Shown here: positions 1,156 to 20,364 of the stretch, in pieces
Layout: each line of letters starts with the position of its first letter
Numbering within the stretch: the first letter of the stretch is position 1
Source: Candidatus Levyibacteriota bacterium
Lineage (GTDB): Bacteria > Patescibacteriota > Microgenomatia > Levybacterales > UBA12049
Direction of reading: 5' to 3'
DNA length: 64,000 nucleotides
Assembly: GCA_016214555.1 (NCBI GenBank)
Contig: JACROF010000003.1
Coordinates: 64,930 to 128,929 of the forward strand
The notes under the pieces: generated by a model
Seen by the model: only the letters and a program-made list of their open reading frames with translations
Database searches by the model: none
What the model was told of the DNA's origin: nothing
Position numbers and translations under genes: made by a program

Positions 1156-3129
1156 ATGAATTTATTACATCAAATACAAACCCTCAATAGTCAAGCATTT
1201 ACTTTAAAGCAAAATGGCCAGATTGACAAAGCTGAGCAAACTCTAAAAATAGCTCTAAGACTTGCCCCAAACCACCCACTTACTAATTACAACCTAGGAA
1301 CATTATTAAAAAATCAAGGAAAACCCGACGAGGCGCTCGCTTTGCTAAAAAAAGCAGCAGATTTCACTCACGACTCGACTGCTCCACTGAACAATCTAGC
1401 ACTATGCCTTAACCAACTAGGACTAGTAGATGAGGCAATTCAAACCTATAAAAGAGCGCTCAAAATCGAACCTACCAACCCGCTTCTAAACTACAACATC
1501 GCCAACCTCTATCTTGAAAACAATATGCAGCAAAAGGCTATAGTTTTTTACAAAAAATCCATAGAATATGAACCCAAAAATCCTCTAGCTTATGCTAATT
1601 TAGGTATTTCCTACTTTCAATTATCTGATAAAAAGGCGATATTACCTTTTAAAAAAGCCATAGAACTTTCACCACAAACAACTCAATACTACTACACTCT
1701 AGCCTATATTTATGAAAAAGCTGGGGATACTAAAAATGCAATCAAATACTACGAAAAAACAATACAAATGGAGCCTAATTTTGAATATGCCTTGGCGCAT
1801 CTTTTTACCCAGAAAAGAAAAATCTGTGATTGGACTGGGCTTGAAAGTATTAGTCAACTCCTTGATCAAACCCACAAAGAATCTCCTTGGTCATCGATAA
1901 TGCGAACTGAAGACTTGAAATCTAATTTGATTGCAGCAAAAGGATACAGTCAGGAACTCGAGGGTAAAATTTCTAAAAATTTATTTTCATTTAAAAAAGG
2001 GGGTGGGAGACAAAAAATCCGCTTGGGCTATATCTCTGCCCACTTTGGCAACCACCCCATTACTTTTACTACCGCTTCAGTTATCAAAAATCATGATAGA
2101 TCAAAGTTTGAAGTTTTTGTTTACTCTTACGGCCCAAATGATAAAAGTACATATAGAAAAAACATAGAAAACGCCGCTTCTCAATTTATTGATGTAACAA
2201 AACTAACAGATAAAGAGGCTGCTAAGAAAATCTTTGATGACCAGATTGATATTTTGGTAGACCTTTCAGGCTATACGCAGGGTAATAGAGCTGAAATTTT
2301 AGCTATGAGACCCTCACCTCTGCAAATAACATGGGCGGGACTTTGCGCAACAACAGGCTCTGATTTTATTGATTATTTTATTGCTGATTCAGTCATAGTT
2401 CCAAAAAAAGATGCGCAATTTTATTCAGAAAAAATGATTTATCTTCCCCCCTGCTTTTGCCCTATTCAGGACATAATTCCCCTATCTAGAAAAAAACTTA
2501 CTAAAAAGCACTTTGGATTACCTGAAAATACATTCATTTTTGCCAGCTTTAATCAAATGTATAAGATCGATAAAACAATCTGGGAGACTTGGATGGAAGT
2601 TTTAAAAAAAGTACCACAAAGCGTTCTCTGGGTATTTATCCAAAATAATGAAGGCAAAAACAACCTTAAGCGCCACGCTCAAAATCAAGGGATCAACCCA
2701 AATCGTATTATCTTCACCAACCAGTTATCTCTTGAAGAATTTTACTCAAGTATCTCACTTGCCGATTTGGCGCTTGACACGCTCGTTTATGGTGGAGGCA
2801 CTACCTCCTATCATAGTCTCCTAAAAAAAGTCCCGCTTATCACCCTCAGAGGCAAGCATCCAGCATCGCTTTTCTCAACAAGCATTCTCAAAGAGTTAGG
2901 GCTTGAAGAATTGAGTACAAAAAATATTCAAGAATATAAAAATATTGCAATTAGTCTTGCTACAGATAATGACAAATTAATGATGATAAAACATCATCTC
3001 ACGCCTGAGAAATTCGACAAAACAATTCTCAATATTGGACAAAAAGTCTCCCACCTAGAAGATGCATATCAACAAATTTGGCACAATTATCTTCTAGGCA
3101 ATAAACCAAAACAAGTTGAGGTTAGTTAG
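1156..3129 (+). CDS. TPR-repeat protein fused to a GT41 (OGT/SPINDLY-like) glycosyltransferase domain
   Basis: The N-terminal ~230 aa carry multiple 34-aa TPR-like repeats (e.g. AIQTYKRALKIEPTNPLLNYNIANLYLENN). The C-terminal part contains the characteristic GT41 block LGYISAHFGNHPITFTT...FEVFVYSYGPND...IDILVDLSGYTQGNRAEILAMRPSPLQITWAGLCATTGSDFIDYFIAD, which resembles eukaryotic OGT and bacterial HMW1C/NGT catalytic regions. Confidence 0.8.
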   Translation: MNLLHQIQTLNSQAFTLKQNGQIDKAEQTLKIALRLAPNHPLTNYNLGTLLKNQGKPDEALALLKKAADFTHDSTAPLNNLALCLNQLGLVDEAIQTYKRALKIEPTNPLLNYNIANLYLENNMQQKAIVFYKKSIEYEPKNPLAYANLGISYFQLSDKKAILPFKKAIELSPQTTQYYYTLAYIYEKAGDTKNAIKYYEKTIQMEPNFEYALAHLFTQKRKICDWTGLESISQLLDQTHKESPWSSIMRTEDLKSNLIAAKGYSQELEGKISKNLFSFKKGGGRQKIRLGYISAHFGNHPITFTTASVIKNHDRSKFEVFVYSYGPNDKSTYRKNIENAASQFIDVTKLTDKEAAKKIFDDQIDILVDLSGYTQGNRAEILAMRPSPLQITWAGLCATTGSDFIDYFIADSVIVPKKDAQFYSEKMIYLPPCFCPIQDIIPLSRKKLTKKHFGLPENTFIFASFNQMYKIDKTIWETWMEVLKKVPQSVLWVFIQNNEGKNNLKRHAQNQGINPNRIIFTNQLSLEEFYSSISLADLALDTLVYGGGTTSYHSLLKKVPLITLRGKHPASLFSTSILKELGLEELSTKNIQEYKNIAISLATDNDKLMMIKHHLTPEKFDKTILNIGQKVSHLEDAYQQIWHNYLLGNKPKQVEVS

Positions 3130-4847: not shown

Positions 4848-7800
4848 ATGCCAGCAGTCCGCGACTATACTTTTGCTTATGAAGCCTCCACAGCAGATGC
4901 AGGAATTACAATTCCCATGTGCGGATATGCAACAAATGATCTTTTAATAGCATTTGCCATCTCAGACACAGGTACTCCAGCATGGGTTCCCTTGAGTGAT
5001 GTTTCAGGGGCAGCTTCTGAAGATGCTGGAACTCCCGTAAGCGATTTAACCGATGCTGTATCAGCTACTGCAAATGATATGGAACTAACCCCAGCAGTAG
5101 GAAATGCAGGAACCGGGGACGGGTATTATTTTGGTAGCACACAACCATTCAACATGGTTAGAGTTAACGTGGGCACTGCTGCATCTGCTTCTTGGACTAT
5201 TACTTGGAAATATTGGAATGGGTCATGGACCACAATTCCCGGCTACACTGATGGAACTACAAATTGGACAGCAGGGACCGGAAATCGTGACGTTACCTTT
5301 AATCCTCCCAACGACTGGGCTACCACGACGGTAGTGTCACAAAATATTTACTGGGTAAAAGCTGAGATAACTGCATTTACTTCCCTCACTACAAGACCTC
5401 TAGGCACTCAAGCCTGGGTACGAAACTGGACACAGCTTTTTGGGCGCAATAATACACTTGCTTCTATCTGTTATTTCAAAATCGCCTCATCATCAACCTC
5501 AGAAGAAGACCTCTTGATGTATACCGCAACAAATGAAACGTATAACGGAAGTATCACTTCAATCCGAGATATTAATACCAAAACCCCATTCGGGGTGGCA
5601 AGCATAGCAAGCTATTCAGAGACGAACGCTGATAGTTATGCAAGTCTTGGAAACGGAACAATAACTGGAGTTGCACAATCATTTACCAATACTGCAGTAG
5701 TCAATACTATTGCAAAAGTCAGATTTTATCTTAAAAAAAACGGGACACCAACTGGTAATGCTACGGCAAAACTCTATACCCATTCAGGAACATTAGGCAC
5801 ATCATCTGTTCCAACCGGCACTGCGCTTGCGGTTTCAGATGCCTTTGATGTGTCAACGTTGACTACCACTGCAACCTTATCTGATTTTGTATTCAGTAAT
5901 TATACAAACTGGTATTCTATGGTAGCATCAACTAATTACGTAGTTTCAATTGAATATTCAGGAGGTGACTCATCAAATTATGTCCAGGTTGGCTACGATA
6001 ACAGCTCTCCCTCCCATGGTGGAAACTATTCTGAAAACACGGGGTCATGGGCTGCAAATTCAGGCAGGGATGTAGCATTTTATCTCCAAACTTTCGCAGC
6101 AAATGACAGCACCCAAGCCGCATCTGCCAGGTTTGCAATGCCTCAGATTACAACTGACGCAAATAATGCACTTGTACTTTACTTTAACTCCACCTCAGGA
6201 ACTGCAGGAACCCCCTCTATTATTGAAGGGCCCGTATTTAGTCTTATCGCAGGAGACGGAACTGCGGAGTCTCATGCAGTGGGATGGGGATTTAAAGCCA
6301 CGGCGGGATCAACACCTAACAATGTTTATGCTACAGCTGCTGTTACAGGGGCAGGCGTCAAAGCTGTTATCCAAGTCTCCCCTCCCACAACAGGAGCTAC
6401 AATAATCCCTGCCTATACTCCACAGGATGACTGCACCTACATAGATCCTATTGCTGGTGTAAGTGCATATAATTCTAATACTGCCTTGGCTGCTACTGCA
6501 GATACTAACTTTGGTACGTCTCTTGGAGGCTTTACTGCTAATGATGCAACCGTAGCTGCTATGGCTGATACCGGAATTAACTCATTCCACTCACTTGGAG
6601 GAATGACAAATGCTGCGACAGCAAAAACAATTAGCGGGGCAGAATTGGTTCTCGCAGCTGCAAATAGATTTAATATGGGGACTAAAAATCTGCTTTGCCA
6701 TGTGTATGCCGCCACCCCTGCACATATGCAAAGATTCTCAGCCGTATCTTCAGAGCGTGGTTTTTGGATGGGAGTCCGATCAAATACGGGGTCTGGAGGA
6801 GCAACAACAGGATATAAAATCTGGCAGGTACATGGAGTTGATGCTCCATGGGATTTTGGGTTCCATGTACCAATCATTGTAAACTCAGGCGCAGGAAATA
6901 CTAAGGCAACATCGGGAACTCTAGATACAGCAGTTATTGCATCTGTTGGTTTTTGGAATAGCTCTATAGGAGCTCTTACTAATCAACAAGGAGTAGGATC
7001 ATTATGGCTTATGGACAAAACGGTTGTTTGTGGAGGAAATAGTGCAGAACCTCTCAATGTGCCAGGTATTGTCAAAACAATTGCTCGCGGCAAAGAACGT
7101 CAATCAGGAATTCTTCAAGGAGCAAAGCAGATGCTTTTGCTTCAAGATATTCAGCTTGGTGATGGCGGAACAGACCCAACATATCTTGATCTAGATTCGA
7201 CAGCGACTGAATTTCCAAGACAATATAATGCTGCGACAGCCCAGGTTAATTATAATTCAACGGATAACATCATAGGAATTACCTATTATCCCGGAGCTTC
7301 GGATACTATCAAGCATCGCAACTCAATCATATCAAGCAGTAGCAGATACAAATGGGGGTTACATGCTTCCGCATCCACTTCAGCATCGTATGATTTTTCA
7401 GGTCTTATCGTAATCGGCGCTGGAATAATCACCCTTAATAAAGCAATTACCATAACCGAACTCACCATTAACGACTACTCAACTCTTGATGTCTCAGGAC
7501 TTACCTTTAATTTAGGAACTATATTAAATATGCCTGCTACCAGCGACTCTATAACTACCTCAAGTAGTACGGTTATTTCAAATAGCTCAATAACCACAAC
7601 TACCGTTACGGCTGGTAATAGATGGGCCTCTGTTGCAACAGCTGATCTAGATATGTTCTCAGGCAATACCTTTACCGGTTCGACAACGAGCGGACATGCT
7701 ATCAGGCTCACATCAACGGGAACAGTTAGCTTTTCAGGGAATACATTTACTTCTTATGGCCCGGCAGCAAGAAGCTTTGATGCGTCAACGGACGTCAATA

Positions 7801-8603
7801 CAACAACAAATATCATTACTCTTGACGCAGCCCATGGGTACAACAACGGCGAACCAGCGTACTTTCAGGATCAAGGAGGAACCGCCCCAACAGGTCTTAC
7901 CGATGGCAATCTTTACTATGTAAGAAGTGAATCCTCAACCACCATCACTCTTTATGACACATCAGCACACGCCATAGCTGGAGGCGCCACAGGACAAGCA
8001 GACATCACTGCCACAGGCTCTGGAACACAATATATTTATAGTGCGGCAGCAGCCATCTACAATAATTCTGGTGGGGCTGTAACTATCAATGTCACCAACG
8101 GAGGAAGTACACCAAGTATTAGGAATTCAGACGGATCATCAACTACAGTCAATAATTCTGTCAATCTCACAATCACCGTCATTGATGCGAGTACAAATCC
8201 TGTGCCAACAGCCCAGACCGCCATCTATCGAACAAGTGACAACGTTGAGCTTATGAATGAAGATACAGAAACAGTAACTGCTGGCTCATTTGTTGTCGGG
8301 GTAAAATACACCATCGTCAGCGTTGGCTCAACAGACTTTACAGCAATTGGAGCCGCTTCAAATACAGTTGGCGTTGCTTTCACGGCAACTGGTGTAGGAT
8401 CGGGAACTGGCACTGCCTCAAATGGTATCGCAACAGCCACGTTTAGTTATATTACTGATACGGCAGTATATGTCAGAGTCAGAAAATCTTCCACAGGTAC
8501 TACAAAATATACACCAGTTTCAACAACAGGAACTATCACGAGCACAGGATATTCTCTAACAGTTACTCTAACAAGTGACACGATAGCCGATCCGACCTTG
8601 TGA
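4848..8603 (+). CDS. Giant Ser/Thr/Asn/Gly-rich protein (1251 aa), paralog family member 1; no signal peptide; function unknown
   Basis: Long uninterrupted ORF. The N-terminus MPAVRDYTFAYEAS...ITIPMCGYATNDLLIAFAISDTGT is paralogous to the N-terminus of 10547..13114. Shared central blocks: SIIEGPV...AGVKA.IQ, CGG...PGIV...IQLGDGGT.PTYLDLD, GITYY.GASDTIKHR. Shared C-terminal blocks: AAHGY..G...Y.QDQGG and YVRVR. It also shares a VTF..P.DWA.T...QN.Y block with 13367..16246. Confidence 0.7.
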   Translation: MPAVRDYTFAYEASTADAGITIPMCGYATNDLLIAFAISDTGTPAWVPLSDVSGAASEDAGTPVSDLTDAVSATANDMELTPAVGNAGTGDGYYFGSTQPFNMVRVNVGTAASASWTITWKYWNGSWTTIPGYTDGTTNWTAGTGNRDVTFNPPNDWATTTVVSQNIYWVKAEITAFTSLTTRPLGTQAWVRNWTQLFGRNNTLASICYFKIASSSTSEEDLLMYTATNETYNGSITSIRDINTKTPFGVASIASYSETNADSYASLGNGTITGVAQSFTNTAVVNTIAKVRFYLKKNGTPTGNATAKLYTHSGTLGTSSVPTGTALAVSDAFDVSTLTTTATLSDFVFSNYTNWYSMVASTNYVVSIEYSGGDSSNYVQVGYDNSSPSHGGNYSENTGSWAANSGRDVAFYLQTFAANDSTQAASARFAMPQITTDANNALVLYFNSTSGTAGTPSIIEGPVFSLIAGDGTAESHAVGWGFKATAGSTPNNVYATAAVTGAGVKAVIQVSPPTTGATIIPAYTPQDDCTYIDPIAGVSAYNSNTALAATADTNFGTSLGGFTANDATVAAMADTGINSFHSLGGMTNAATAKTISGAELVLAAANRFNMGTKNLLCHVYAATPAHMQRFSAVSSERGFWMGVRSNTGSGGATTGYKIWQVHGVDAPWDFGFHVPIIVNSGAGNTKATSGTLDTAVIASVGFWNSSIGALTNQQGVGSLWLMDKTVVCGGNSAEPLNVPGIVKTIARGKERQSGILQGAKQMLLLQDIQLGDGGTDPTYLDLDSTATEFPRQYNAATAQVNYNSTDNIIGITYYPGASDTIKHRNSIISSSSRYKWGLHASASTSASYDFSGLIVIGAGIITLNKAITITELTINDYSTLDVSGLTFNLGTILNMPATSDSITTSSSTVISNSSITTTTVTAGNRWASVATADLDMFSGNTFTGSTTSGHAIRLTSTGTVSFSGNTFTSYGPAARSFDASTDVNTTTNIITLDAAHGYNNGEPAYFQDQGGTAPTGLTDGNLYYVRSESSTTITLYDTSAHAIAGGATGQADITATGSGTQYIYSAAAAIYNNSGGAVTINVTNGGSTPSIRNSDGSSTTVNNSVNLTITVIDASTNPVPTAQTAIYRTSDNVELMNEDTETVTAGSFVVGVKYTIVSVGSTDFTAIGAASNTVGVAFTATGVGSGTGTASNGIATATFSYITDTAVYVRVRKSSTGTTKYTPVSTTGTITSTGYSLTVTLTSDTIADPTL

Positions 8604-10135
8604 TTTTAAGTCTTAATCATGCAAAAATACTCCAAAAAGAAAGGTTGACGACAGCAGCAAGGATTGCTGCAACAGAACACATACAAATTATTGAAGGAGC
8701 AAGACAACTTCTTGTCTCGCTCTCAACATCCCCATTTATACTCTACCCTGACGAAAACTGCTCGCTATATTTACAACAAGTACTAAATAAATATCAACGC
8801 TACAATAATATTGCACTCGCAAATCTTCATGGTGATGCGATATGCAATGCTGCAGCACTTCCAGAACAAAAAATTGTCAATGTGTCCGATCGTTATTTTT
8901 TTAAAGAGGTGATAAAAACAAATGAATTTACCGTTGGAGAATATTCTTTAAGCAAGACAACCAAACAACCCGTAATATCACTTGGCTATCCGGTCCATGA
9001 CTACCAAGGACGTCTTATTGGTATTATCTATTCATCGCTTGATCTAGATTGGCTAAAAAATCTCGTATCAAGCCTGTCGCTTGGGGACAATTCCGTGCTA
9101 TTAATAACAGATAAAAATGGTAAAATTCTTGCCTCAAATCAAAACTCATTTCAAGCAGGCTCTCTCCTCTCTGACAAAGGAATAGTTCTTAACCTAAAGT
9201 CAGACTCAGGATTAATTGAACCACAAGATACTAAGAACTATTTCTTTGCTTACAATCAAATCGGTGGTTCGAGTTCAAACCCTTTTGCTTTCGTAGGGCT
9301 CCCAAAAGCTACAGTTTATCAAAAACCTAACGAGGACTTTGCTAAATCTCTCCTCTTCTCCGGATTGATAGCACTCCTCTCTTTGACAGGAGGATGGTAC
9401 ATAGGCAACTCGCTCATAACCAAACTTGTTATGGCTGTACAAAAAGTAGACCAACTTAGGCAGGATTTTGTCTCTTTAGTATCGCATCAACTTCGGACAC
9501 CACTAACCGCAATAAAGTATTTTTGTGAAATCCTCCTTTCAGAATCCTCAGGCAAACTTAATAAAAAACAGAAAGAATTTATCACTGACACACTTACTTC
9601 AGCTTCACGGTTGAGCCAGCTGGTAGGAACTCTTCTTGATATCGGAAGACTTGAAGAGGGAAAAATGCTTCTTAATTTTAAGGAAGTATCAGTTGAAAAA
9701 TTGCTAGAAAACAGCATGAAAGATATCGCTCCCTTTATCAAAAAAGAGGGCCTCAAGCTGTCGCGGGTTAAAAAAAGAGGCGTACCTAGCAACATTTTTG
9801 TCGATGAAAAACTAATGATACAGGCCGTGTCAAATCTCCTCTCAAATGCAGTAAAATACAGCGACCCAAAATCACTTATTGAAATTATTCTCTCAAAATC
9901 AAACAATGGCATACTTTTTGAGATCAAAAACAGAGGGATAGTCATACTTCCTGAAGATAAGTCCCATATCTTTTCAAAATTTTACCGATCAACTATGGCA
10001 AGAAAAAAAGCAGACGAAGGGTCTGGATTAGGACTTTATCTGACAAAACTTATTATAGAATCACATGGGGGCAAAATCTGGTTTGAAAGCGATAAAAATA
10101 GTACGTCATTTTTCTTTACTCTAGAGATTAAATAA
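8600..10135 (+). CDS. Sensor histidine kinase with an extracytoplasmic Cache-like domain; it appears to lack an N-terminal TM/signal segment
   Basis: HisKA box VSLVSHQLRTPLTAIKYF. HATPase_c motifs NLLSNAVKYSD, GSGLGLYLTKLIIESHGGKIWFES. One TM helix (LLFSGLIALLSLTGGWYIGNSLI) precedes HisKA. The first ~250 aa are Cache-like (YQGRLIGIIYSSLDLDWLKN...LLITDKNGKILASNQ) but no hydrophobic segment precedes them. An in-frame stop lies immediately upstream, and the start (GTG at 8600) overlaps the stop of the preceding giant gene. Confidence 0.8.
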   Translation: MILSLNHAKILQKERLTTAARIAATEHIQIIEGARQLLVSLSTSPFILYPDENCSLYLQQVLNKYQRYNNIALANLHGDAICNAAALPEQKIVNVSDRYFFKEVIKTNEFTVGEYSLSKTTKQPVISLGYPVHDYQGRLIGIIYSSLDLDWLKNLVSSLSLGDNSVLLITDKNGKILASNQNSFQAGSLLSDKGIVLNLKSDSGLIEPQDTKNYFFAYNQIGGSSSNPFAFVGLPKATVYQKPNEDFAKSLLFSGLIALLSLTGGWYIGNSLITKLVMAVQKVDQLRQDFVSLVSHQLRTPLTAIKYFCEILLSESSGKLNKKQKEFITDTLTSASRLSQLVGTLLDIGRLEEGKMLLNFKEVSVEKLLENSMKDIAPFIKKEGLKLSRVKKRGVPSNIFVDEKLMIQAVSNLLSNAVKYSDPKSLIEIILSKSNNGILFEIKNRGIVILPEDKSHIFSKFYRSTMARKKADEGSGLGLYLTKLIIESHGGKIWFESDKNSTSFFFTLEIK

Positions 10136-10155
10136 TGGTAGAATGAAATAAAATC

Positions 10156-10530
10156 ATGCCTAAATCATATAAAGTCCTTATCGTTGAAGACGATAAATTT
10201 ATACTAAAAGCAATTCGCTACAAATTTGAAGAAGCAAAATTTAACGTTAAAACTTCACAAACTGCCGAAGGAGGGTTAACATTGCTTGAAAAATGGACTC
10301 CTAATGCAATTATATTAGATATTTTGCTTCCGGGGATTGATGGATATGCTTTTTTACGAACAGTCAGAAACCACCCCAAATGGAGCACCATCCCTGTTAT
10401 CGTTGCCTCAAATATCAATGAGCCTCCAGATATAGAACCAGGAGAAAATACCGGATACAAAGAGTATATTGTAAAATCTGATCTTGATCTCAATAGTCTT
10501 GTTGAAAAAGTCAAAACACTCGCCAGATAA
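10156..10530 (+). CDS. Stand-alone response-regulator receiver domain (CheY-like)
   Basis: 124 aa. It has the acidic pocket KVLIVEDD, the phospho-acceptor context AIILDILLPGIDG, and a conserved T/K downstream. It lies directly after the kinase. Confidence 0.8.
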   Translation: MPKSYKVLIVEDDKFILKAIRYKFEEAKFNVKTSQTAEGGLTLLEKWTPNAIILDILLPGIDGYAFLRTVRNHPKWSTIPVIVASNINEPPDIEPGENTGYKEYIVKSDLDLNSLVEKVKTLAR

Positions 10531-10546
10531 GATATTCAGATTTCAC

Positions 10547-13114
10547 ATGCCAGCAATACGAGATTTCGCAAGTAATTACACTACTGTTACAACAGGCACA
10601 ACTATCATCATTCCGGTTCCTGCTGTTGTTGAAAACGACCTCATGATCGCAATACTCGTAGCAGACACAGGAACAGGGACATGGTCCTGCACAGGGTGGA
10701 CAGAGCTTTTAAGGCAGACTAACACATCGCAACTTTGCGTTATGTACAGGATAGCAACGTCAAGTGAGCCTGATGACTACACCTTTACGAGAAGTACCTC
10801 AGAAACTTTTAACGGCCGCATAGTTAGTATCCGAGATATCGATACAACCAATCCCTTTGGCAGTACGCCAACATATACTGTTACGAATCAATCATCAGCT
10901 GCAAAATATACACTCCCCCAGGTCACTACCACAGTTGCCAACTCCCTCATATTATATGCAGTCTCAAATTCAGCAGCTGGTGTACCTTCAATAATTGAAG
11001 GGCCAGTAAGTCTTATCGTTGGAGAAGATGGAAGCGCTGAGTCTGGAGGTGTCGCATGGAGCTTTATGCCATCAACTGGTGCAAGTCCAAATAATATAAC
11101 GTGTTCAAACATTTCAAGCGGTGCTGGAGTAAAAGCAGCAATACAAATTGCTGCTCCGTCAGGCGGTGCGACCATCGTGCCAGCATACTGCTCATCTGAC
11201 GCTAGTATTTATATTAATCCCATTCATGGAACAACCGCATATAACTCAGACACAGGACTTGCCGCAACCTGGGACACATTAATTGGAACTTCCCTTAATG
11301 GAATCACACTCGCTGACGCGACTGTCGCTGCCGCAGCCGACGTAGGAATCAACCCCTACCATTCTGCAGGAAGACTAACATCGATATCGGGTAGTAGAAA
11401 TTGGTCTGGAGCAGCGCTTGATTTAGCATCTGGAAATAACGTAAATCTTTCTGGAAAAAATATTCTTGTACATACGGGCCCATCAACTCCTGGGCAAATT
11501 CAAAGATTTGGCGCAGCAGCTTCACAAAAAGGGACAGCAATCGCAATGCAGTCTTCGTCAGGGAATTGGAAGGCATGGCATGTGCATGGGAAAGGAACTC
11601 CTTATGGATACCAAAGAGATGTCCCTTTAATTGTCAATTCTAGTAATACAGGTGGTCTCCTAGAGTCAGCAGGCACATTTGATGCCTCTGCGGTTGATAT
11701 TTTTGGATTTGCTGTGGCAGGAGGAGGAGTATCAACTACAATTTGGGATTTTTATTCCCTTTGGGTACTTGATATCGTCACAATTTGCGGCGGAATAGCA
11801 AGTTCTCCCATAGACGTTCCTGGTATCGTTCTTGCCGCTGCCGACGGACATGAAAGAAAATCAATAGTGCAACAAGGAACAGGACAGGCAATTGTTTTTC
11901 AGCCAATTCAGATCGGAGATGGAGGAACTCACCCAACCTATCTTGACCTTAACGCTACAGCTATCGAATTCCCAAAACAGTATGATCTCACAAGCCTTCA
12001 GGTAAATTATTGCTCTGTTGATAATGTTGCAGGGATAACGTATTATGCAGGCGCTTCTGATACGATTAAGCACCGCAGTTCGGTTATTTCAAGTCCTAAT
12101 AAATATCATTGGGGATTTCATGCCTCAACCTCAACCTCTGCAACGTATGACTTTTCCGGTCTTCAAGTAATTGGTGCTGGAACTATTACTTTAGTAAATA
12201 ATTTATCATTGTCAGGCATAACTTGGTCTGATTGCGACAACTTTTCATCAGCTGGTACATATTTAGATAACTGCACGATTAAAACCACAGTTGCAACATC
12301 CGCTCTTACAGTCTCATCAACTACAAATATGGGCAGGATCACCAACTGCACTTTCAATACTAACAATGATGGCGATATCGGACATTCAATAGAGCTAACT
12401 GCAACAGGTACTCATGCTTTCGATAATATCGCTTTTGCTGGTGGCGGAGTGGCCAAGAGAAGTTTTAATACTACAACCGGGGTTGATGCGGGAACTGACA
12501 TCATTACAGTCGATGCAGCCCATGGGTATGTTGACGGAGATGCTATTTACTACCAAGACCAAGGAGGATCACAAAATATGGGGTTGACTGATGGAACGCT
12601 GTACTATGTAAATGCTCAATCTACGACCACCCTTTCATTCCATACAACAAAAGCAGATGCAATTGCGAACACAAATAAAGTTGCGCTCACTTCAGCTGGT
12701 GGAGAAACACATTCTATCTATTCTGCAAAAGCTGATGTCTACAACAACTCAGGAGGTGCTGTCACAATTAATGTATCAAATGGTGGAACTGTCCCAACTG
12801 TTCGAGAATCAAATGGGTCAAGTACGACGATAAATAATTCTGTAACTCTTGAAATAAACGGGGTCGCCCAAGGCACACGCTGCTATATCGAGGCGGCACT
12901 TGGAGGACCAGAGACATCAGGAACAATCCTCATGAATGAGGAAGCAGACGCACTGGGCATTGCTACCCAAACATATAACTACACATCAAGCCAACCAGTA
13001 AGAATTAGAGCAAGACTCGCAGGCTACATACCCTTTGAAACAACAGGAACTATTGCATCAACAGGCCTTACAATTACTGCTGTTTGGCTAGAAGACTCCA
13101 ACTACACACCGTAA
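10547..13114 (+). CDS. Giant Ser/Thr/Asn-rich protein (about 855 aa), paralog family member 2; no signal peptide
   Basis: Start chosen at the internal ATG giving MPAIRDFASNYTT..., which matches the MPAVRDYTF start of paralog 1. The ORF track begins 21 codons upstream at an alternative start. Conserved blocks are the same as in 4848..8603; the middle is divergent. Confidence 0.65.
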   Translation: MPAIRDFASNYTTVTTGTTIIIPVPAVVENDLMIAILVADTGTGTWSCTGWTELLRQTNTSQLCVMYRIATSSEPDDYTFTRSTSETFNGRIVSIRDIDTTNPFGSTPTYTVTNQSSAAKYTLPQVTTTVANSLILYAVSNSAAGVPSIIEGPVSLIVGEDGSAESGGVAWSFMPSTGASPNNITCSNISSGAGVKAAIQIAAPSGGATIVPAYCSSDASIYINPIHGTTAYNSDTGLAATWDTLIGTSLNGITLADATVAAAADVGINPYHSAGRLTSISGSRNWSGAALDLASGNNVNLSGKNILVHTGPSTPGQIQRFGAAASQKGTAIAMQSSSGNWKAWHVHGKGTPYGYQRDVPLIVNSSNTGGLLESAGTFDASAVDIFGFAVAGGGVSTTIWDFYSLWVLDIVTICGGIASSPIDVPGIVLAAADGHERKSIVQQGTGQAIVFQPIQIGDGGTHPTYLDLNATAIEFPKQYDLTSLQVNYCSVDNVAGITYYAGASDTIKHRSSVISSPNKYHWGFHASTSTSATYDFSGLQVIGAGTITLVNNLSLSGITWSDCDNFSSAGTYLDNCTIKTTVATSALTVSSTTNMGRITNCTFNTNNDGDIGHSIELTATGTHAFDNIAFAGGGVAKRSFNTTTGVDAGTDIITVDAAHGYVDGDAIYYQDQGGSQNMGLTDGTLYYVNAQSTTTLSFHTTKADAIANTNKVALTSAGGETHSIYSAKADVYNNSGGAVTINVSNGGTVPTVRESNGSSTTINNSVTLEINGVAQGTRCYIEAALGGPETSGTILMNEEADALGIATQTYNYTSSQPVRIRARLAGYIPFETTGTIASTGLTITAVWLEDSNYTP

Positions 13115-13300
13115 CTATCTAACAATTGTTCGATTAACTTTTCTTACTAAGAATTGAATAAGACTGTTACCTATTGATACTTTTTACAAGCTTTTGATCT
13201 AGTTTCTATCACTCAATTTTACCTCTCGATTATTTTTATTTTTTTTATTTCAAATTATATAGACACGTGGAGAGTGACAAAGCTAATTTAAAATTGCCCA

Positions 13301-13331
13301 TTGACAAGCTATTACGCATTCATACTAATAT
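13301..13331 (+). promoter_or_regulatory. Candidate sigma70-like promoter (TTGACA, then 19 nt, then TAATAT) in the AT-rich 250-nt spacer upstream of the third giant gene
   Basis: TTGACA at 13301-13306 and TAATAT at 13326-13331. The spacer is longer than the optimal 17 nt, so this is weak. Confidence 0.25.
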
Positions 13332-13366
13332 AGATATGTTAGGTAATTTGGTAATTATTGTAATTT

Positions 13367-16246
13367 ATGGCTGATACGATTTTATCCGGTAGATGGGTTG
13401 TCTATTACGAAGCTGAGAATCGCCAAAAGAGAATTTGGCGTGATACTTCTGTTTCGCCGACGACGACTGACACCGTCAATGCTCTCTACTCTGCTCTGCA
13501 GGGTCATTTTGATGAGCTGGGACAGATGGACGATGGTGTCCCCATGTCTGCACAGACCCCGACTGAGTACACGATCGGCATCATCGACGCAGGAGACACA
13601 GATCCTTGGTTTATTGACAGAACATCAATTGAATACCTCACTGGCGGAGCTCTCAAAACAGCTTCGTGGGACAGAGTTACTTCCAGCAATACAGGCATTG
13701 TACGATTCACCTACACCACAGGCACTGACTTTGATACGACCGATATCGGTAGAGACATCACCAATGCGACAGGCCTAGACTCAGGAACGCTCCTAGACTT
13801 TAATTCAACGGGTGCAACAAAGTATGCGTGGGTACGACCTGACTCAAATGCCGCTGCAAATGACTGGGACTCCACCTCAGGAACGGTTGCTGTATCAAAT
13901 GACTCATTTGCTCAAGTGTGGCAGGTAGACAACACTACCTTTGTAGACCAATCATCTGGAGCAAATGATGCCACCAATGCCAACTGGACTGTTTTCCCTG
14001 CTTCTGAGGATACATCAGATTATGTTGCGATGGGATACAGGCAAAAGTTCAAAAAAGTGATCTTTGATTATGCTAACGGTACTGCAGGAGTTGGAGGAAC
14101 AGTCACATGGCAATACTGGAACGGATCTACCTGGGCTGCTCTGTCTGGTGTATCAGACGGCACAACAGGCTTTACCGCAACAGTAGGTGATGGCAAAGTG
14201 CTTACCTTTACTGTTCCATCAGACTGGGCAGCAACATCACTTAATGGCTCACAAAATCTCTACTATATCAGAGCACTTGTATCTGGTACCTACTCTACCA
14301 ATCCTATTTTGGACCAAGGATTTATCGGGGGAACAGGCTCGGTAACCCAAGCAACAGCCGGAGCATCTGCTGGAGAGTCACTCTGGGCTAACATCTACTC
14401 AATCGGTACTATTGAAGCAAATACACATCTTTATATTCAACAAAATGGCTCAAATCTCACTGCCTACAAAGCCTCAACTGACTGGTGGAGCGATGGGCAT
14501 ATTGACATTTTGGTCAATGTAAAAGAGCTTGGTACCGAGACAGATGAGGGATACATCAAGGTATTTGCCCGCCAGTACTCAAAGACTTATTCCTACTACA
14601 CAGTAGACTTAACTGCCGGAGGACGAAATCCTATCCCGCTTCAGACAGGAAATGATTTGGACAACCAGACCGGCTACAAAACAATAGCATTTGATAACGG
14701 TACTGGAACTCTTGCTGTGGGAGACGTCATCACTGTCAGCGCAACAGCACGAGCAATCGTCACAGCTGTGACTGGTGCAGCATCAGCAACAGGAACATTT
14801 GACTATTATCTTATCGGCGATCCTATTACCGATTTAACAAATAACGAAGCATTTACTTCAACCACAGGCAAAGCAGCAGACATTAACGGCTCATCATCAA
14901 ATGCCGGTCCCGCAGCCCTTGGCTCCCCACCTAGCATTACCTTTGGAGGATTAACAGCAGGTGGAACTGAAGACATTGATGAAAATGGAACTGCTGAAAA
15001 TTATTCAATTACTATTGACTGTAACCAAAACGCCCTAGCAGATGTTTATGAATATACCAAGTATATTACAAGGCGTGGAAACACAGGAGACATCGATGCT
15101 GGCTCACTCACCATCGAGGGACAATTCTATTTAGGAACTGAGTATAGGCTGAAATACACTGGCTCAGTAACTGGAACTATCGTTGACGGCAATACGGTAA
15201 CACAAGAAACATCAGGAGCTACAGGTATCGTTGTTAATCACAACACAACAGACAAAATCATCATGCTTCGCAACACGAGAGGAACCTTTGCTACTCACGC
15301 TAGCACCCATACACTTACTGACAACACAACCGGCGGAACAGTTGAGATTAATTCAGAGGCAACAGCCGTAACACCAGTTGGCGCAGCTCCCTTTGGAACA
15401 TTCGCTGGAGGAACATTCTTCGTCGCTACAGGTATCGTACTCACCGATTATTTGACAGCAGAAGCAAATAATTTCCAGCTCAAAACTGATGAAGGAACTG
15501 TTGTCGAAGCGCCAACCAAAGTCACTATCTCTGTTGGTAACACGAGATCCGGAGACAAAGTTGGAGTATTCCGTCTTTCTGGATCAGGCGGATCAATCAT
15601 CAAAGACAGATACAACGCCACTGTTCAATCAGCCCTCGCAACTACAGCTGTCATGGGCTCCTCAATTGCCGTTGACGAACCAGGAAGAACTGCCGGAGGT
15701 GTCATAAGACTAGTTGATACCTCAGCGAGTGCTGAATACAGAATTAGATTTAGTAGCTGGGCTTCAAGCACATTTACTCTTGCAAGTAGCGACATAGCCT
15801 CAGCTGATTCGGGAACAAATACCACAACTATCGTAGAATCTGGAGCATTCGCCTCTTCAAAAGTCGGAGATCTCGTAGTTAATGTAACGAGAGGAAATGC
15901 TGTTTCATACATTACTGTTATTACTGACAGCAATACCGTGACGATATCTCCTGCAATTACAGGCCAAACAACAGCTGACAACATCAAGCTTAACGTCTTA
16001 CCTGTTGCAACAACCACCTCCCCACAAGACACCTGGTATGTACCTATGATTGATACATACGAAACAACAGGTAGCGCTGGAACACCAGGCACAGAGACCG
16101 CACTTATCACTTATCTTGCTGATATATATGTAAGGGTAAGAGCAAGAAATGCAGGAAATATTATTCCTTATGAAGCTGACTCTACCGTAACAAGTACCGG
16201 TATGAGTAACAGTATCATTAGAACAACTGATACAATATTTACCTAA
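13367..16246 (+). CDS. Giant Ser/Thr/Gly-rich protein (959 aa), paralog family member 3 (more divergent); no signal peptide
   Basis: Shares the block TVTWQYWNGSTWAALSGVSDGTTGF...KVLTFTVPSDWAATSLNGSQNLYYIRA with paralog 1 (WTITWKYWNGSWTTIPGYTDGTTNW...VTFNPPNDWATTTVVSQNIYWVKA). Also shares the C-terminal IYVRVRARNAGNIIPYE block with both other paralogs. Confidence 0.65.
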   Translation: MADTILSGRWVVYYEAENRQKRIWRDTSVSPTTTDTVNALYSALQGHFDELGQMDDGVPMSAQTPTEYTIGIIDAGDTDPWFIDRTSIEYLTGGALKTASWDRVTSSNTGIVRFTYTTGTDFDTTDIGRDITNATGLDSGTLLDFNSTGATKYAWVRPDSNAAANDWDSTSGTVAVSNDSFAQVWQVDNTTFVDQSSGANDATNANWTVFPASEDTSDYVAMGYRQKFKKVIFDYANGTAGVGGTVTWQYWNGSTWAALSGVSDGTTGFTATVGDGKVLTFTVPSDWAATSLNGSQNLYYIRALVSGTYSTNPILDQGFIGGTGSVTQATAGASAGESLWANIYSIGTIEANTHLYIQQNGSNLTAYKASTDWWSDGHIDILVNVKELGTETDEGYIKVFARQYSKTYSYYTVDLTAGGRNPIPLQTGNDLDNQTGYKTIAFDNGTGTLAVGDVITVSATARAIVTAVTGAASATGTFDYYLIGDPITDLTNNEAFTSTTGKAADINGSSSNAGPAALGSPPSITFGGLTAGGTEDIDENGTAENYSITIDCNQNALADVYEYTKYITRRGNTGDIDAGSLTIEGQFYLGTEYRLKYTGSVTGTIVDGNTVTQETSGATGIVVNHNTTDKIIMLRNTRGTFATHASTHTLTDNTTGGTVEINSEATAVTPVGAAPFGTFAGGTFFVATGIVLTDYLTAEANNFQLKTDEGTVVEAPTKVTISVGNTRSGDKVGVFRLSGSGGSIIKDRYNATVQSALATTAVMGSSIAVDEPGRTAGGVIRLVDTSASAEYRIRFSSWASSTFTLASSDIASADSGTNTTTIVESGAFASSKVGDLVVNVTRGNAVSYITVITDSNTVTISPAITGQTTADNIKLNVLPVATTTSPQDTWYVPMIDTYETTGSAGTPGTETALITYLADIYVRVRARNAGNIIPYEADSTVTSTGMSNSIIRTTDTIFT

Positions 16247-16252
16247 TAACGT

Positions 16253-16657
16253 ATGAGATTTGAAATTTCACGATCACTAAACGGTAACAAAGTTACATAC
16301 ATCGCCAGAGATACCAATGGCATTGTAAGACTACGCGCTGACAGTGTTGAGGCACTGCAAGAAGCCATCAAGCAATACAATGATGCGCTACTTGAGCAAT
16401 CTCATGCCAAAAAAACCAAAACGAAAATCGACCTATCAGACAATGAACAGCCACAGACCACAAACGAATCTGACGAAAGCATAGTGACTTCAGTTACCAC
16501 CGTGTCTGAATCGACTCAACCTGAGACTGAGGAAACATCAGACACCTCTGCTGCGCCTGAAGAAAAGAAAGAATTCCTAACAAATGATGCCAAAAAGCAA
16601 ACAGATGAGAGAAGACGAAAAACAAGCTCAAAAAGCTTTTGGGACAAACTAAAATAA
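16253..16657 (+). CDS. Small acidic hypothetical protein with a Glu/Ser/Thr-rich centre and a Lys/Arg-rich C-terminus
   Basis: 134-aa ORF starting 6 nt after the stop of the giant gene, so it is operonic. No recognisable domain. Confidence 0.45.
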   Translation: MRFEISRSLNGNKVTYIARDTNGIVRLRADSVEALQEAIKQYNDALLEQSHAKKTKTKIDLSDNEQPQTTNESDESIVTSVTTVSESTQPETEETSDTSAAPEEKKEFLTNDAKKQTDERRRKTSSKSFWDKLK

Positions 16658-16661
16658 TTAA

Positions 16662-16770
16662 AAAGGCAAAACTCAAAGGTCAAAAGTGAAAGTATAAATC
16701 CAAAAGTTATATACACTTTTTAATTTTGAATTATACTTTTGCCTTTTTAATTTTGACTTTTAACTTACTT
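16662..16770. repeat. AT-rich imperfect palindromic intergenic element
   Basis: The inverted pair AAAAGGCAAAA / TTTTGCCTTTTT and the inner pair AAAGTATAA / TTATACTTT bracket about 60 nt. The right arm contains TTTTGACTTTTAACTT (16751-16766), which is identical to 37-52 at the window start. Confidence 0.4.
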
Positions 16771-16775
16771 AAGGT

Positions 16776-17093
16776 ATGGCAGGCATAACTACAACACCAA
16801 TCACCAGAGAAGAAGCACTTCAGTATGACGCAGAAGCACTTCGGGCTAATTGTGAAAAACGCAAAAATAATATCAAGATCTTTGAGGAGGCTATCGCAAA
16901 AGAACAAGAGTCAATCAAGCAAGACGAGTACATGATCTCTGCTATAGATCCCAATCACCCAGACGTCCAAACGCTTAAGGGTAATATAGAAAAAATAAAG
17001 CTCAACATCAAAACTTTTCAGGACGCCATTACTGAAGAAAACTCCCAGATTGATCGAAATAATCAAATGATCACGATGATCGAAGCCAATTAA
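16776..17093 (+). CDS. Small coiled-coil hypothetical protein
   Basis: 105 aa. Heptad-rich and Glu/Lys/Ile-rich (EEAIAKEQESIKQDE...IEKIKLNIKTFQDAITEEN). No known motif. Confidence 0.45.
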   Translation: MAGITTTPITREEALQYDAEALRANCEKRKNNIKIFEEAIAKEQESIKQDEYMISAIDPNHPDVQTLKGNIEKIKLNIKTFQDAITEENSQIDRNNQMITMIEAN

Positions 17094-17224
17094 AATTTTC
17101 TAATTTCTAAGTACTCTAATTAACCTAAATAAAGTCAAAAGCTGCAATTGACGAAATGAGAATTTAATAATTGGGATTTTTTTAGATCAATTAGAAATTA
17201 GAATAATTAGGTCAATTTTAAGCT

Positions 17225-18529
17225 ATGGCACTAACATTTAATAAAAATACCAAAATTATCACTGTTGGATCACCTCAGACAACCCTGACTATACAGGATC
17301 TTCATGATGATATTAGGCTGTTTGAGCATCTCCCTCAAAATTTGGAGGAGGCGCAAATTGCTAATGCCTCAGGCAAACAAAGCCTTGGTGGTGGTGTTAC
17401 GGTAGGCATCACCCTTGAGCTAATCAACAACTGGAGACTCGCTTTTGAGGCTCGACCAGGACCTGACACTATTCTTTGCAGCGTCACGGGAGGTAATCTA
17501 GTGGCGACAAATGACTATGACAACAACCCAATCTACCCTACTGCCTATACTCAGGTCACAATCGCCCAATCATCATCAGCAACGGTGATCGAAGCGCCAT
17601 CTGATGACCATATGCTTTACCTTTTGGCCTCTCTTCGTGGCAAACAACGAGGTGTTGGAAGTTATTATTACTGGAATCCAACCTCAGGCAGCGACAGCAA
17701 TGATGGCACAACCCCTGGCAAAGCTGTACTGACTTTTGCACAAGCACAATCTCTTGCCTCAGCTGGAACTGGAGACACAATTTTTTGCATAGCCTCCAAC
17801 TCATCTGGAACAACTACTGTTACAGAAACACTTAATATCACAAAAGCCAATCTCAAAATCATGGGCCCAGGCTACACATTCCAACTAGTACCAACCGCAA
17901 CGACATCTCCAACCATCACCATCGCAGCTGCCAACGTTGAAGTGTCAGGACTTTATGTATCAACTGCTGGCACAGGATCACAAGACGCTATTTCAGTTGG
18001 CGCCAACCGTGCTTTTATTGAAGATTGCTGGATAGCAAGCGTTCGTGGTAACGGCATCAATCTCGCAAGCACTGCAAGGACACAGATCAATAGTTGTGTT
18101 ATTGAACACTGCGGCCTATCAGGTACAGGAGATGGTATCAAACTAGGTAACACCACTACGGAAGCACTCATTTCTAAATCAATTGTCTTTGACAATGTTA
18201 ATGGTGTCTCACTTTCTGGTACTGGACTTGCTGACAATATCTTTGAAAACAATCTCATCTATCAAAACACTGGATATGGCATCACTGTTGGAGCAAATGT
18301 TCTTCGAACTCACGTACGCTCTGGGCACACCTTTAATAAAAACACAGCTGGTAGCACTCAAGATCTTGGAACTGATACCTTTATAGAGACACAGGCAGGC
18401 GGAGCATCTGCTTCAGAAATCGCGGATGCAGTCTGGGATGAGGTCATATCAGGTCATATCACCAGTGGCTCTGCAGGAAGAACACTCAAAGACGCAAAGA
18501 CAAGAGCAACGCTCGCCTCTCTGCAATAA
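17225..18529 (+). CDS. Right-handed parallel beta-helix (pectate-lyase/tailspike-like) protein; no signal peptide
   Basis: Repeated PbH1-like rungs: NGINLASTARTQINSCVIEHCGLSGTGDGIKLGNTTTEALISKSIVFDNVNGVSLSGTGLADNIFENNLIYQNTGYGITVG. The C-terminus SEIADAVWDEVISGHITSGSAGRTLKD matches the repeats of 21010..23955. Confidence 0.7.
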   Translation: MALTFNKNTKIITVGSPQTTLTIQDLHDDIRLFEHLPQNLEEAQIANASGKQSLGGGVTVGITLELINNWRLAFEARPGPDTILCSVTGGNLVATNDYDNNPIYPTAYTQVTIAQSSSATVIEAPSDDHMLYLLASLRGKQRGVGSYYYWNPTSGSDSNDGTTPGKAVLTFAQAQSLASAGTGDTIFCIASNSSGTTTVTETLNITKANLKIMGPGYTFQLVPTATTSPTITIAAANVEVSGLYVSTAGTGSQDAISVGANRAFIEDCWIASVRGNGINLASTARTQINSCVIEHCGLSGTGDGIKLGNTTTEALISKSIVFDNVNGVSLSGTGLADNIFENNLIYQNTGYGITVGANVLRTHVRSGHTFNKNTAGSTQDLGTDTFIETQAGGASASEIADAVWDEVISGHITSGSAGRTLKDAKTRATLASLQ

Positions 18530-19176: not shown

Positions 19177-19338
19177 ATGTTTAATAATATTGGTTGGCCA
19201 GAATTTGCAATTGTCGGTTTTATCCTTCTTCTTTTATTTGGAAGCAAAAAAATCGTTGAGCTTGCACGAGGACTCGGTGAATCTACGAAAGAATTAAAGC
19301 GTGCAAAAAATGAATTTTCTAAAGCGAAGGAAGAGTAA
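19177..19338 (+). CDS. tatA: Twin-arginine translocase subunit TatA/E (53 aa), not in the ORF track
   Basis: MFNNIGWPEFAIVGFILLLLFGSKKIVELARGLGESTKELKRA: an N-terminal TM helix, a G-hinge and an amphipathic helix. A strong RBS AAAGGGGGTG lies upstream. Confidence 0.75.
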   Translation: MFNNIGWPEFAIVGFILLLLFGSKKIVELARGLGESTKELKRAKNEFSKAKEE

Positions 19339-19431: not shown

Positions 19432-19569
19432 ATGTTACAAAATATCGGAACAGTAGAAATTGTTATCGTTGCGTTACTGATAGTCTTGTTCTTTGGCGGC
19501 AGGAAAATTCCTGAGTTTATTCGTGGCATTGCTGAAGCAATTCGTGAATTCAAAAAAAGCAGTAAATAA
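19432..19569 (+). CDS. tatA: TatA/E paralog (45 aa), not in the ORF track
   Basis: MLQNIGTVEIVIVALLIVLFFGGRKIPEFIRGIAEAIREFKK. RBS GGAGGTG upstream. Confidence 0.7.
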   Translation: MLQNIGTVEIVIVALLIVLFFGGRKIPEFIRGIAEAIREFKKSSK

Positions 19570-19581
19570 CGATAAAAATCC

Positions 19582-20364
19582 ATGGACGCATTAGAAGGTC
19601 TCAATTTGGAGTCTGCATCAGTCAGATATATGCCCTTTCTTATCGAGATTCGAAAGAGGTTACTTTTTTTGTCTGCAGTTTTTTTAGTTACTTGTGCTCT
19701 TGGATTTATTTATTACCAAAAAATTATTCTTTTTATCCTCAACCTATACGATCTTCAAAGCATCAACGTCACATTTACCTCGCCTTTTCAATTTGTTAAC
19801 CTCGCCATCAGCTCAGGAATGATAGTTGGATTTGCCCTCACACTTCCTTTGATCCTCCATCAAGTCCTCAGCTTTTTAAGGCCAGCCCTCCATAAAGGGG
19901 AGTACAACCTTTTGATCCGCTTTCTCCCTCTGAGCCTTATCCTTTTTGTGATAGGATTCTCATTTGGAAGCTGGATAACCAAACTTATTATTGAGGTGTA
20001 CTCCCGACAGACGACACAGCTTGAGATTCAAAATTTGTGGGATATTAATAGCTTTCTTTCACAAATTCTGTATACATCACTGCTTCTTGGCATTGTCTTT
20101 CAATTCCCTCTTGTCATCACGCTTCTTGTTCGATTTGGTGTCATTTCTCATAAAGTCATGTCAAAGCAGCGCAAGATCGCCTATGCTATTATTTTGATTG
20201 TAGTAATCCTTCTTCCCCCAACTGATTTACTGTCAATGGTGCTTATTTTTCTTCCGCTTGCAATCGTTTATGAACTTACTTTATCATTGAATAAAAGAGC
20301 CAAAGTACAGACTTGGCATAGTTTGAAAACACAAGTAAGTCATTCGAAAGGGGGTGAAAAGTAA
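19582..20364 (+). CDS. tatC: Twin-arginine translocase subunit TatC
   Basis: 260-aa polytopic membrane protein with the TatC N-terminal signature FLIEIRKRLLFLSAVFLV and six predicted TM helices. The true start may be the internal MPFLIEIRKRL. Confidence 0.8.
   Translation: MDALEGLNLESASVRYMPFLIEIRKRLLFLSAVFLVTCALGFIYYQKIILFILNLYDLQSINVTFTSPFQFVNLAISSGMIVGFALTLPLILHQVLSFLRPALHKGEYNLLIRFLPLSLILFVIGFSFGSWITKLIIEVYSRQTTQLEIQNLWDINSFLSQILYTSLLLGIVFQFPLVITLLVRFGVISHKVMSKQRKIAYAIILIVVILLPPTDLLSMVLIFLPLAIVYELTLSLNKRAKVQTWHSLKTQVSHSKGGEK

Follow-up and report, generated by a model that had tools for sequence, protein, structure and literature searches.

The closest described counterpart of the locus treated here is a cassette of cyanophage Syn5 made up of the contiguous genes 53, 54 and 55. 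The products of the first two reportedly form a 'horn' (Raytcheva et al. 2014, J Virol 88:2047), which is said to stand at the capsid vertex opposite the tail. The third product, gp55, was assigned together with gp58 to knob-like densities on the surface of the Syn5 capsid (Gipson et al. 2014, PMC4102127). In the present work we analyzed a gene cluster of a Candidatus Levyibacteriota bacterium (GenBank assembly GCA_016214555.1, contig JACROF010000003.1). It lies within a stretch of 64,000 nucleotides, positions 64,930–128,929 of the contig, hereafter called the window, in whose own numbering all coordinates are given; features are on the plus strand unless stated otherwise. The cluster (4848–18529) encodes, in this order, the giant protein A, a sensor histidine kinase (HK), a response regulator, the giant proteins B and C, two small proteins (s134 and s105) and a β-helix protein (BH). 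An earlier note on the same DNA, made without database searches, could not match these genes to a described family. Our comparisons reveal homology both to the Syn5 53–54–55 cassette and to a large, unannotated phage family, and we regard the cluster as the cellular and probably domesticated form of an appendage cassette that is known from phages but poorly understood.

Comparison with the Syn5 cassette and its viral relatives

Proteins A and B belong to a family, named c0 here, that is found on 26 viral contigs of IMG/VR with G+C contents of 28–67%, one of them 597 kb long. On these contigs c0 almost always adjoins a gene for a protein of about 500 residues (c2) or about 560 residues (c3) and a gene for a protein of about 180 residues (c1). 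The presence of genes for the large terminase, portal, prohead protease, major capsid protein, adaptor and sheath near the cassette identifies the contigs as true tailed phages. The position of the cassette varies: it may be enclosed by terminase and portal or by portal and protease, or it may precede the head-tail adaptor. Here 'viral' refers to the IMG/VR classification together with such nearby hallmark genes, and 'cellular' to the public labels of metagenome-assembled genomes (MAGs) together with flanking housekeeping genes. The viral matches came only with an alignment, and with the viral c2 as query; a pattern scan of IMG/VR with a single sequence gave nothing, nor did a search of 50,697 phage records by tblastn with B and C. 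In deposited phage genomes outside Syn5 the cassette is labelled only 'structural protein' or 'hypothetical'. One further contig (L036, ENA k141_1025171, 395 kb, 56% G+C) carries a C homologue (54% identity), a short protein resembling the N-domain of BH and a Gp80-family gene, and also genes for poly(A) polymerase, NAD kinase and IF3; its source could be a huge phage and not a cell.

The c2 protein is 46.6% identical to Syn5 gp53 at 94% coverage, and its hidden Markov model (HMM) recognizes gp53 at 1.5e-157; the HMM of c3, which is the family of C, does so at 5e-12 (34.6 bits). The families c2 and c3 are homologous (hhalign, 97.9%), and comparison of the C/c3 alignment with the gp53/c2 alignment gives 98.0% (E 1.9e-13, 301 columns), placing protein C (13367–16246; 959 residues) among the distant homologues of gp53. 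The c1 HMM recognizes gp55 at 2.7e-35, and homology extends from the N-domain of c1 to residues 1 to ~100 of BH (17225–18529; 434 residues). The N-domain of BH (residues 1 to about 125, nucleotides 17225–17599) aligns with the phage c1/gp55 family at 97.2% (E 3.5e-11, 90 columns); set directly against Syn5 gp55, the HMM of this domain gives a weak 7.9 bits. The c0 HMM matches gp54 over only its C-terminal ~140 residues (1.5e-13; 33–42% identity for viral c0 proteins). Since c3 is the family of C, c2 resembles c3, and c1 resembles the N-domain of BH, the proteins B, C and BH correspond to the phage trio c0, c2/c3 and c1. The genes are neighbours in each case: B, C, two small open reading frames (ORFs) and BH in the window, c0 with c2/c3 and c1 in the viral loci, and 53, 54 and 55 in Syn5.

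Like the Syn5 cassette, the cluster thus brings together a gp53 relative, a protein with a gp55-type N-domain and, in the position of gp54, the proteins A and B, which end in the same class of C-terminal module. Unlike that cassette, it lies in a cellular chromosome with cellular flanks, in a window that has no gene for capsid, portal or terminase. The bodies of A and B (N-terminal domains and β-helix) are unrelated in sequence to the first 480 residues of gp54, to which no similarity was detectable. In the window the C-terminal module has the form called RVR below, in Syn5 the DRNY/ERNY form. The window also joins a further part to the gp55-type domain: judged by its sequence, BH is a gp55-type N-domain fused to a right-handed β-helix (Pfam Beta_helix, 2e-9), in keeping with the β-helix protein that the earlier note had placed beyond the small ORFs; a PHROG scan of BH gave only a marginal match (phrog_32409, 7e-4). 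Finally, the window adds the small proteins, a two-component system and neighbouring genes of the twin-arginine translocation (Tat) pathway.

The giant proteins and their C-terminal modules

Every ORF reported in the earlier note was recovered in its place. A (4848–8603) has 1251 residues and B (10547–13114) has 855, counted from its ATG; A has the same core as B plus about 300 residues of inserted domains between residues 47 and 420, and BLASTP aligns the two with 43% identity over about 820 residues (575 bits). The description of A, B and C as three paralogues is only partly right, because C is a different protein that shares two pieces with A. The blocks MPA(V/I)RD, SIIEGPV, IQ(L/I)GDGGT.PTYLDL, GITYY.GASDTIKHR and AAHGY...QDQGG, thought to be common to all three, are confined to A and B (C begins with MADTILSGRW), and YVRVR alone recurs in C. 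The shared pieces are residues 89–191 of A (5112–5420) and 216–320 of C (14012–14326), which are 39% identical (E 4e-13), and the last ~55 residues with the YVRVR block (E 8e-5). In a neighbour-joining tree without support values, the c0 genes of the Candidate Phyla Radiation (CPR) occupy at least four positions among viral c0 genes, with A and B in separate clades. In identity, too, some viral c0 proteins (59%) come nearer to B than A does (43–45%). As A and B belong to different, virus-intermixed clades, they represent old, distinct lineages and not a recent local duplication, and these lineages were probably exchanged with viruses. The proposed three-fold expansion of paralogues therefore gives way to two c0 proteins from different branches of this unsupported tree and an unlike family, C. 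The orthologue of A in the syntenic locus L007 is 66% identical to it.

The insert of ~105 residues present in both A and C is a β-sandwich with the motif W.YWNG..W and is missing from most C orthologues, which have about 810 residues. A further match of the copy in C is to the nozzle protein of phage LME-1 of Legionella (L037, 9521–11977), and by fold this copy probably resembles Pvc11-type baseplate proteins; the insert appears to be a mobile virion-surface domain. A duplication within C is seen in two other loci, where an ORF of 83–103 residues directly upstream of C (L041, 9579–9830; L042, 9550–9861) repeats residues 18–98 of C at 32–37% identity.

Homologues of B fall into at least 192 clusters, all unannotated and typically of about 755 residues. 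A c0 profile search of 1.84 billion representatives yielded 694 clusters with E-values up to 1e-30 and 2517 with E-values up to 1e-10 (clusters at 50% identity). Homologues of C form more than 590 clusters; the best 120 are 51–100% identical to C, and the few named ones among these all come from CPR lineages (Levy-, Woese-, Roizman-, Beckwith- and Blackburnbacteria, Microgenomates and WWE3). A, B and C fall outside all curated families: there was no match in Pfam, PHROGs, NCBIfam or PADLOC, and sequence and profile searches of the PDB gave nothing significant. The AlphaFold2 model of B (pLDDT 95.3, pTM 0.90) is nearly all β, with N-terminal β domains, a tailspike-like right-handed parallel β-helix and C-terminal β-sandwiches. 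His, Asp, Glu and Arg residues are invariant or nearly so in 111 homologues, for example H509, within DTIKHR, and E436–R437. For C the AlphaFold2 model has a pLDDT of 83.7, and its comparison with viral models by Foldseek was uninformative, returning only low-TM, multi-domain matches to baseplate, structural and fibre proteins.

The composition of A, B and C is as the earlier note had described it: Ser, Thr, Gly and Asn make up 40–43% of residues vs 27% in the remaining window, charged residues 11–16% vs ~20%, and none of the three has the hydrophobic N-terminus of a Sec signal peptide. In these features, and in being modular with exchangeable parts, they resemble β-helix tailspikes and depolymerases such as TSP2 of phage CBA120 and those of Klebsiella phages. 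On the other hand, the cluster has no sequence-level homology to these proteins, no known tailspike anchoring domain, and no match of A, B or C to a tail family of Pfam or PHROGs. The conserved part of c0 comprises the N-terminal ~630 residues including the helix, which are 45–60% identical across phages of 28–67% G+C, in contrast to fast-evolving receptor binders; moreover, the docking module of c0 is C-terminal.

This module occupies the end of all three giants in the window (8415–8600 in A, 12929–13111 in B, 16079–16243 in C) and follows the consensus '...(I/V)RVR...P.ET..G....D..'. It also ends the giants of L041 and L042, an 869-residue protein of L040, and phage c0 and c3 proteins. Where the partner is of the c3 type (12 of 12 loci), the RVR type closes both large proteins; with a c2-type partner, both are of the DRNY/ERNY type (13 of 13 loci, and likewise Syn5), c0/gp54 ending in '..LPI.Q..DRNY' and c2/gp53 in 'SLVA.LERNYSNP'. 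A third matched type was found in two further loci. This perfect co-variation within cassettes argues for physical co-assembly of the large proteins via their C-termini and is the strongest evidence for it.

The slot upstream of C differs even among close relatives. The window, L007 and L034 have the arrangement A, HK, response regulator, B; in L038 a single c0 gene is preceded by a histidine kinase and two receiver (REC) genes; L041 and L042 have single giants of ~2200 residues whose bodies are unrelated to A and B. The idea of a conserved scaffold with variable parts was right in spirit, the variable part being the slot of A and B. The interval between c0 and C is also an insertion hotspot, with AbiEii, AAA_14/DUF4143, Fic, BrnT/CopG and Y1 transposase genes (L034, 8078–9319; L038, 4022–9864 and 12919–13471; L040, 8469–9590).

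Conservation of the cluster and its neighbours

Nine further loci were examined (L004, L007, L034, L035 and L038–L042). Where the flanks are available, the conserved order is C, an s134-like protein, one or more short coiled-coil proteins, optionally a protein of 277–306 residues, BH, one to three tatA genes and tatC, often PrsW, and a large SH3_3 protein. The order C, small proteins, BH, tatA, tatC is present in seven CPR loci (L034, L035 and L038–L042), of which three are named, having been retrieved via proteins of Woesebacteria, WWE3 and Blackburnbacteria (L040). Partial synteny is seen in L007, with a tatC-like ORF downstream of BH. Orthologues of BH are 51–89% identical and stand ahead of tatA/tatC in the seven loci. 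In the WWE3 locus (L039) the next genes downstream are hrcA, nusA, infB and rpsO (NusA, IF-2, S15). Against the closest relative, L041, whose C is 94% identical, dN/dS was 0.032 for C, 0.042 for BH, 0.052 for s105 and 0.137 for s134, with 0.026 for TatC, all ratios being approximate because dS is high (about 1.4). The genes of the cluster are thus clearly under strong constraint and not decaying, as judged from these codon comparisons. L007 (CAZRJH010000004.1) is gene-for-gene syntenic with the window from a GT41 gene to TatC, including GNAT and DegT. The MAG records of L007, L005 and L006 are labelled 'uncultured Gammaproteobacteria' or 'Pseudomonadales', and these labels look wrong.

The small protein s134 (16253–16657) has a conserved N-domain, an acidic linker and a C-terminal FWDKL motif, and its orthologue directly follows C in L007, L034, L035, L038, L041 and L042; in L040 the two are separated by a coiled-coil ORF. 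The coiled-coil protein s105 (16776–17093; 105 residues) is matched by tblastn in two parts: positions 16785–16949 by ORFs of 55 residues in L034 and 59 residues in L039, and positions 16944–17072 by an 88-residue ORF in L040. It appears to have arisen by fusion of two short genes, which L034 has as separate ORFs of 55 and 79 residues. The protein of 277–306 residues is conserved and carries no known domain; four loci have it between the small proteins and BH (L007; L034, 13324–14157; L038, 13696–14529; L039, 5827–6741). It is absent from the corresponding interval of the window (17094–17224), where tblastn found no remnant. L040 encodes a protein of 1398 residues (13188–17384) whose C-terminal third is BH and whose residues 271–482 resemble residues 302–509 of C; from these similarities the predicted product is a C-like/BH fusion.

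A two-component system is embedded between A and B. HK (8600–10135) comprises dCache_1, HisKA and HATPase_c domains by Pfam and is N-terminally truncated; its GTG start overlaps the stop codon of A, and an in-frame stop lies 8 codons upstream. The response regulator (10156–10530; Pfam Response_reg, 8e-19) is a stand-alone REC protein without output domain, 58–60% identical to the copies in L007, L034 and L038. Orthologues of HK are flanked by c0 genes in L007 and L034, a histidine kinase precedes c0 in L038, and in L035 and L040 CHASE-domain proteins take the position next to c0.

Downstream of BH lie tatA (19177–19338), a second tatA (19432–19569), tatC (19582–20364; assigned by Pfam) and a third tatA (20364–20522), followed by a PrsW-like membrane protease (20605–20997; Pfam) and, on the minus strand, a 981-residue protein with a Sec signal and a C-terminal SH3_3 domain (21010–23955; Pfam). 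Orthologues of the last two are in the same position in L034, L035, L038, L040, L041 and L042. The earlier note had regarded the kinase/regulator pair and the Tat genes as part of the arrangement, and they are indeed recurrent neighbours and not accidents. A minimal Gram-positive TatAC system is encoded beside its substrate in phoD-tatAd-tatCd of Bacillus subtilis. The CPR loci resemble this arrangement in that tatA and tatC lie directly downstream of a conserved large gene, BH, in seven loci, but BH and the other cluster proteins have no twin-arginine signal peptide. A, B, C, s134, s105 and BH begin with neither a twin-arginine motif nor a hydrophobic segment, as is also true of the small proteins of orthologous loci, and the hypothesis that these are Tat substrates by a canonical signal was rejected.

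The glycosylation genes noted earlier upstream (GT41-TPR, GNAT and DegT) and the three tatA genes with tatC downstream are all present, and GT4 genes lie downstream of the cluster. The GT41 enzyme (O-GlcNAc-transferase/HMW1C-like, with TPR repeats) is encoded at 1156–3129, upstream of A; its gene is kept at the same place in L007, and in L005 c0 is preceded by a related gene. B and C show a mild excess of N-x-S/T sequons (z about 2.5), whereas A shows none. A scan for promoters and terminators gave counts no better than chance.

The window as a whole is cellular, with genes for MreB, LeuRS, ArgRS, ComEC, sortase, TatC and glycosyltransferases. Its proteins B and C are matched at 100% identity by hypothetical proteins from a MAG of Candidatus Levybacteria. 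It contains no capsid, portal, terminase or sheath gene, and no integrase either, so that the earlier statement that this is not a recognisable prophage holds, given the housekeeping flanks and the synteny kept in at least eight other CPR loci. A prophage or cryptic prophage was rejected, as there is no integrase or morphogenesis gene, the order from C through BH to tat is kept in seven loci and only the slot of A and B varies; a misbinned phage and a contractile injection system or tailocin were likewise ruled out by gene content and synteny. One ORF of 295 residues (45879–46766, minus strand) matches the PHROG 'tail protein' family phrog_7043 (5e-29). It lies beside a 'Competence' ORF of ComEC and is probably the metallo-β-lactamase part of a split ComEC, not a phage gene.

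Possible roles of the cluster

The proteins are fibre- or spike-like, lack Sec signals and form one coherent, conserved cluster, as had been surmised. The reading that we favour, with moderate confidence, is that of a domesticated phage appendage cassette, chromosomal and vertically inherited in Microgenomates and WWE3, which forms a putative modular glycan-binding spike complex. C, BH and the two small proteins would constitute a conserved base, on which exchangeable giants (A and B here, unrelated giants in close relatives) would dock by the shared C-terminal RVR module and supply the specificity for binding or cleaving polysaccharides. By way of the dCache kinase and the REC-only regulator, the c0 genes would respond to an external signal. 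The site of action would be extracytoplasmic, at the envelope of the cell or at a partner cell, and the complex would arrive there folded, the neighbouring TatA/TatC being the obvious candidate for its export route. A more specific version, in which a cell-surface or secreted appendage of Microgenomates and WWE3 sets the glycan bound or cut by swapping spikes on the conserved base, is exported by TatA3C without a canonical signal and is controlled by the dCache kinase and its CheY-like partner, is put forward only tentatively.

Several points weigh against the favoured reading. The CPR-only profile of C reaches just 93% over 52 columns against gp53/c2, and because it is so weak the connection of C to gp53 depends on the phage intermediates; A and B resemble gp54 solely in the class of their C-terminal module. 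Since the cluster proteins have no Sec signal, no twin-arginine signal and no transmembrane helix, their extracytoplasmic location is purely a matter of inference, and the adjacency of the Tat genes could be inherited synteny without functional link. The kinase of the window lacks the first transmembrane helix (~33 N-terminal residues) seen in its orthologues in L004, L006, L007 and L034, which may leave the dCache sensor domain of this genome's copy unexported. No capsid on which a horn or knob could sit is encoded in the window. Finally, the Syn5 horn itself has no established function, and antibodies against it reportedly did not block infection in the 2014 study.

Among the alternatives, A, B and BH may be envelope-glycan enzymes, cytoplasmic or membrane-associated epimerase- or lyase-like modifiers of the cell's own wall polymers, whose phage relatives would be depolymerase-like enzymes. 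The invariant or nearly invariant residues of the 111 homologues would suit a catalytic role of this kind, as would the GT41, GNAT and DegT genes upstream and the GT4 genes downstream. However, the phage cassette is placed among head and tail morphogenesis genes, the products of the Syn5 cassette are virion proteins, and the glycosyltransferase neighbours are kept only in the close relative L007; we therefore regard enzymes of this type as unlikely. A somewhat smaller chance is given to an anti-phage decoy, by which host copies would co-assemble or compete with parts of infecting phages, poisoning virion assembly or blocking adsorption. It would account for the intermixing of CPR and viral c0 genes in the neighbour-joining tree, for the proximity of B to some viral c0 proteins, and for the defence and toxin-antitoxin genes that make the c0-to-C interval a hotspot, although these may merely exploit a permissive insertion site. 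A decoy sits poorly with the very strong, long-term conservation of C and BH, unusual for arms-race genes; A, B, C and BH have no PADLOC match, and no precedent for such a cassette is known. Appendages made for a particle encoded elsewhere, such as a gene-transfer-agent-like element, a resident prophage or a nanocompartment, are more doubtful still. In their favour, the Syn5 homologues attach to the capsid (gp55 according to Gipson et al., gp53 and gp54 reportedly so in the 2014 study), and the N-domain of BH is of this capsid-binding gp55 type. Yet neither the 64-kb window nor the 20-kb flanks of eight related CPR loci contain a capsid, portal or terminase gene. Moreover, CPR genomes, of about 1 Mb, are not known to encode a conserved particle of this kind. 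A decaying prophage remnant without present function is barely credible: for all the phage origin of the genes, the truncated kinase and the loss of the 277–306-residue gene from this genome, it is contradicted by dN/dS values of 0.03–0.05 for C, BH and s105, on par with TatC, by intact ORFs in an order kept across Microgenomates classes and WWE3, and by the lack of integrase or att-like features.

A domesticated appendage cassette would also be distinct from tailocins and pyocins, gene-transfer agents, and the Photorhabdus virulence cassette and antifeeding prophage (PVC/Afp) systems, in that it has no sheath, tube, baseplate, capsid or portal and only the peripheral appendage genes are retained; to our knowledge, the retention of such a cassette alone has no described precedent. 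Searches of the literature on CPR bacteria found no description of the cluster, and nothing relevant that links CPR, Patescibacteria or Microgenomates with tail fibres, tailspikes or domesticated phage parts. As to the phages, the Syn5 horn, without known relatives since 2007–2014, now belongs to a large family, whose c0 partner by itself accounts for at least 694 clusters (50% identity), which spans phages of very different hosts and morphotypes and whose matched C-terminal modules amount to a directly testable rule of co-assembly. As to the bacteria, the cluster looks like a part of a virus taken over by cells: an entire CPR lineage keeps the cassette in its chromosome, always beside the Tat genes, under selection as strong as that on TatC and with a hypervariable slot for giant proteins. 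Few mechanisms are known by which CPR bacteria make contact with other cells and with phages, and the cluster offers a concrete candidate, which may serve attachment between cells, the foraging of glycans or interference with phages, as well as a possible example of signal-less, Tat-linked export. If the appendage reading is true, it would represent the first domesticated capsid-appendage module and a candidate host-attachment organelle of an uncultured superphylum.

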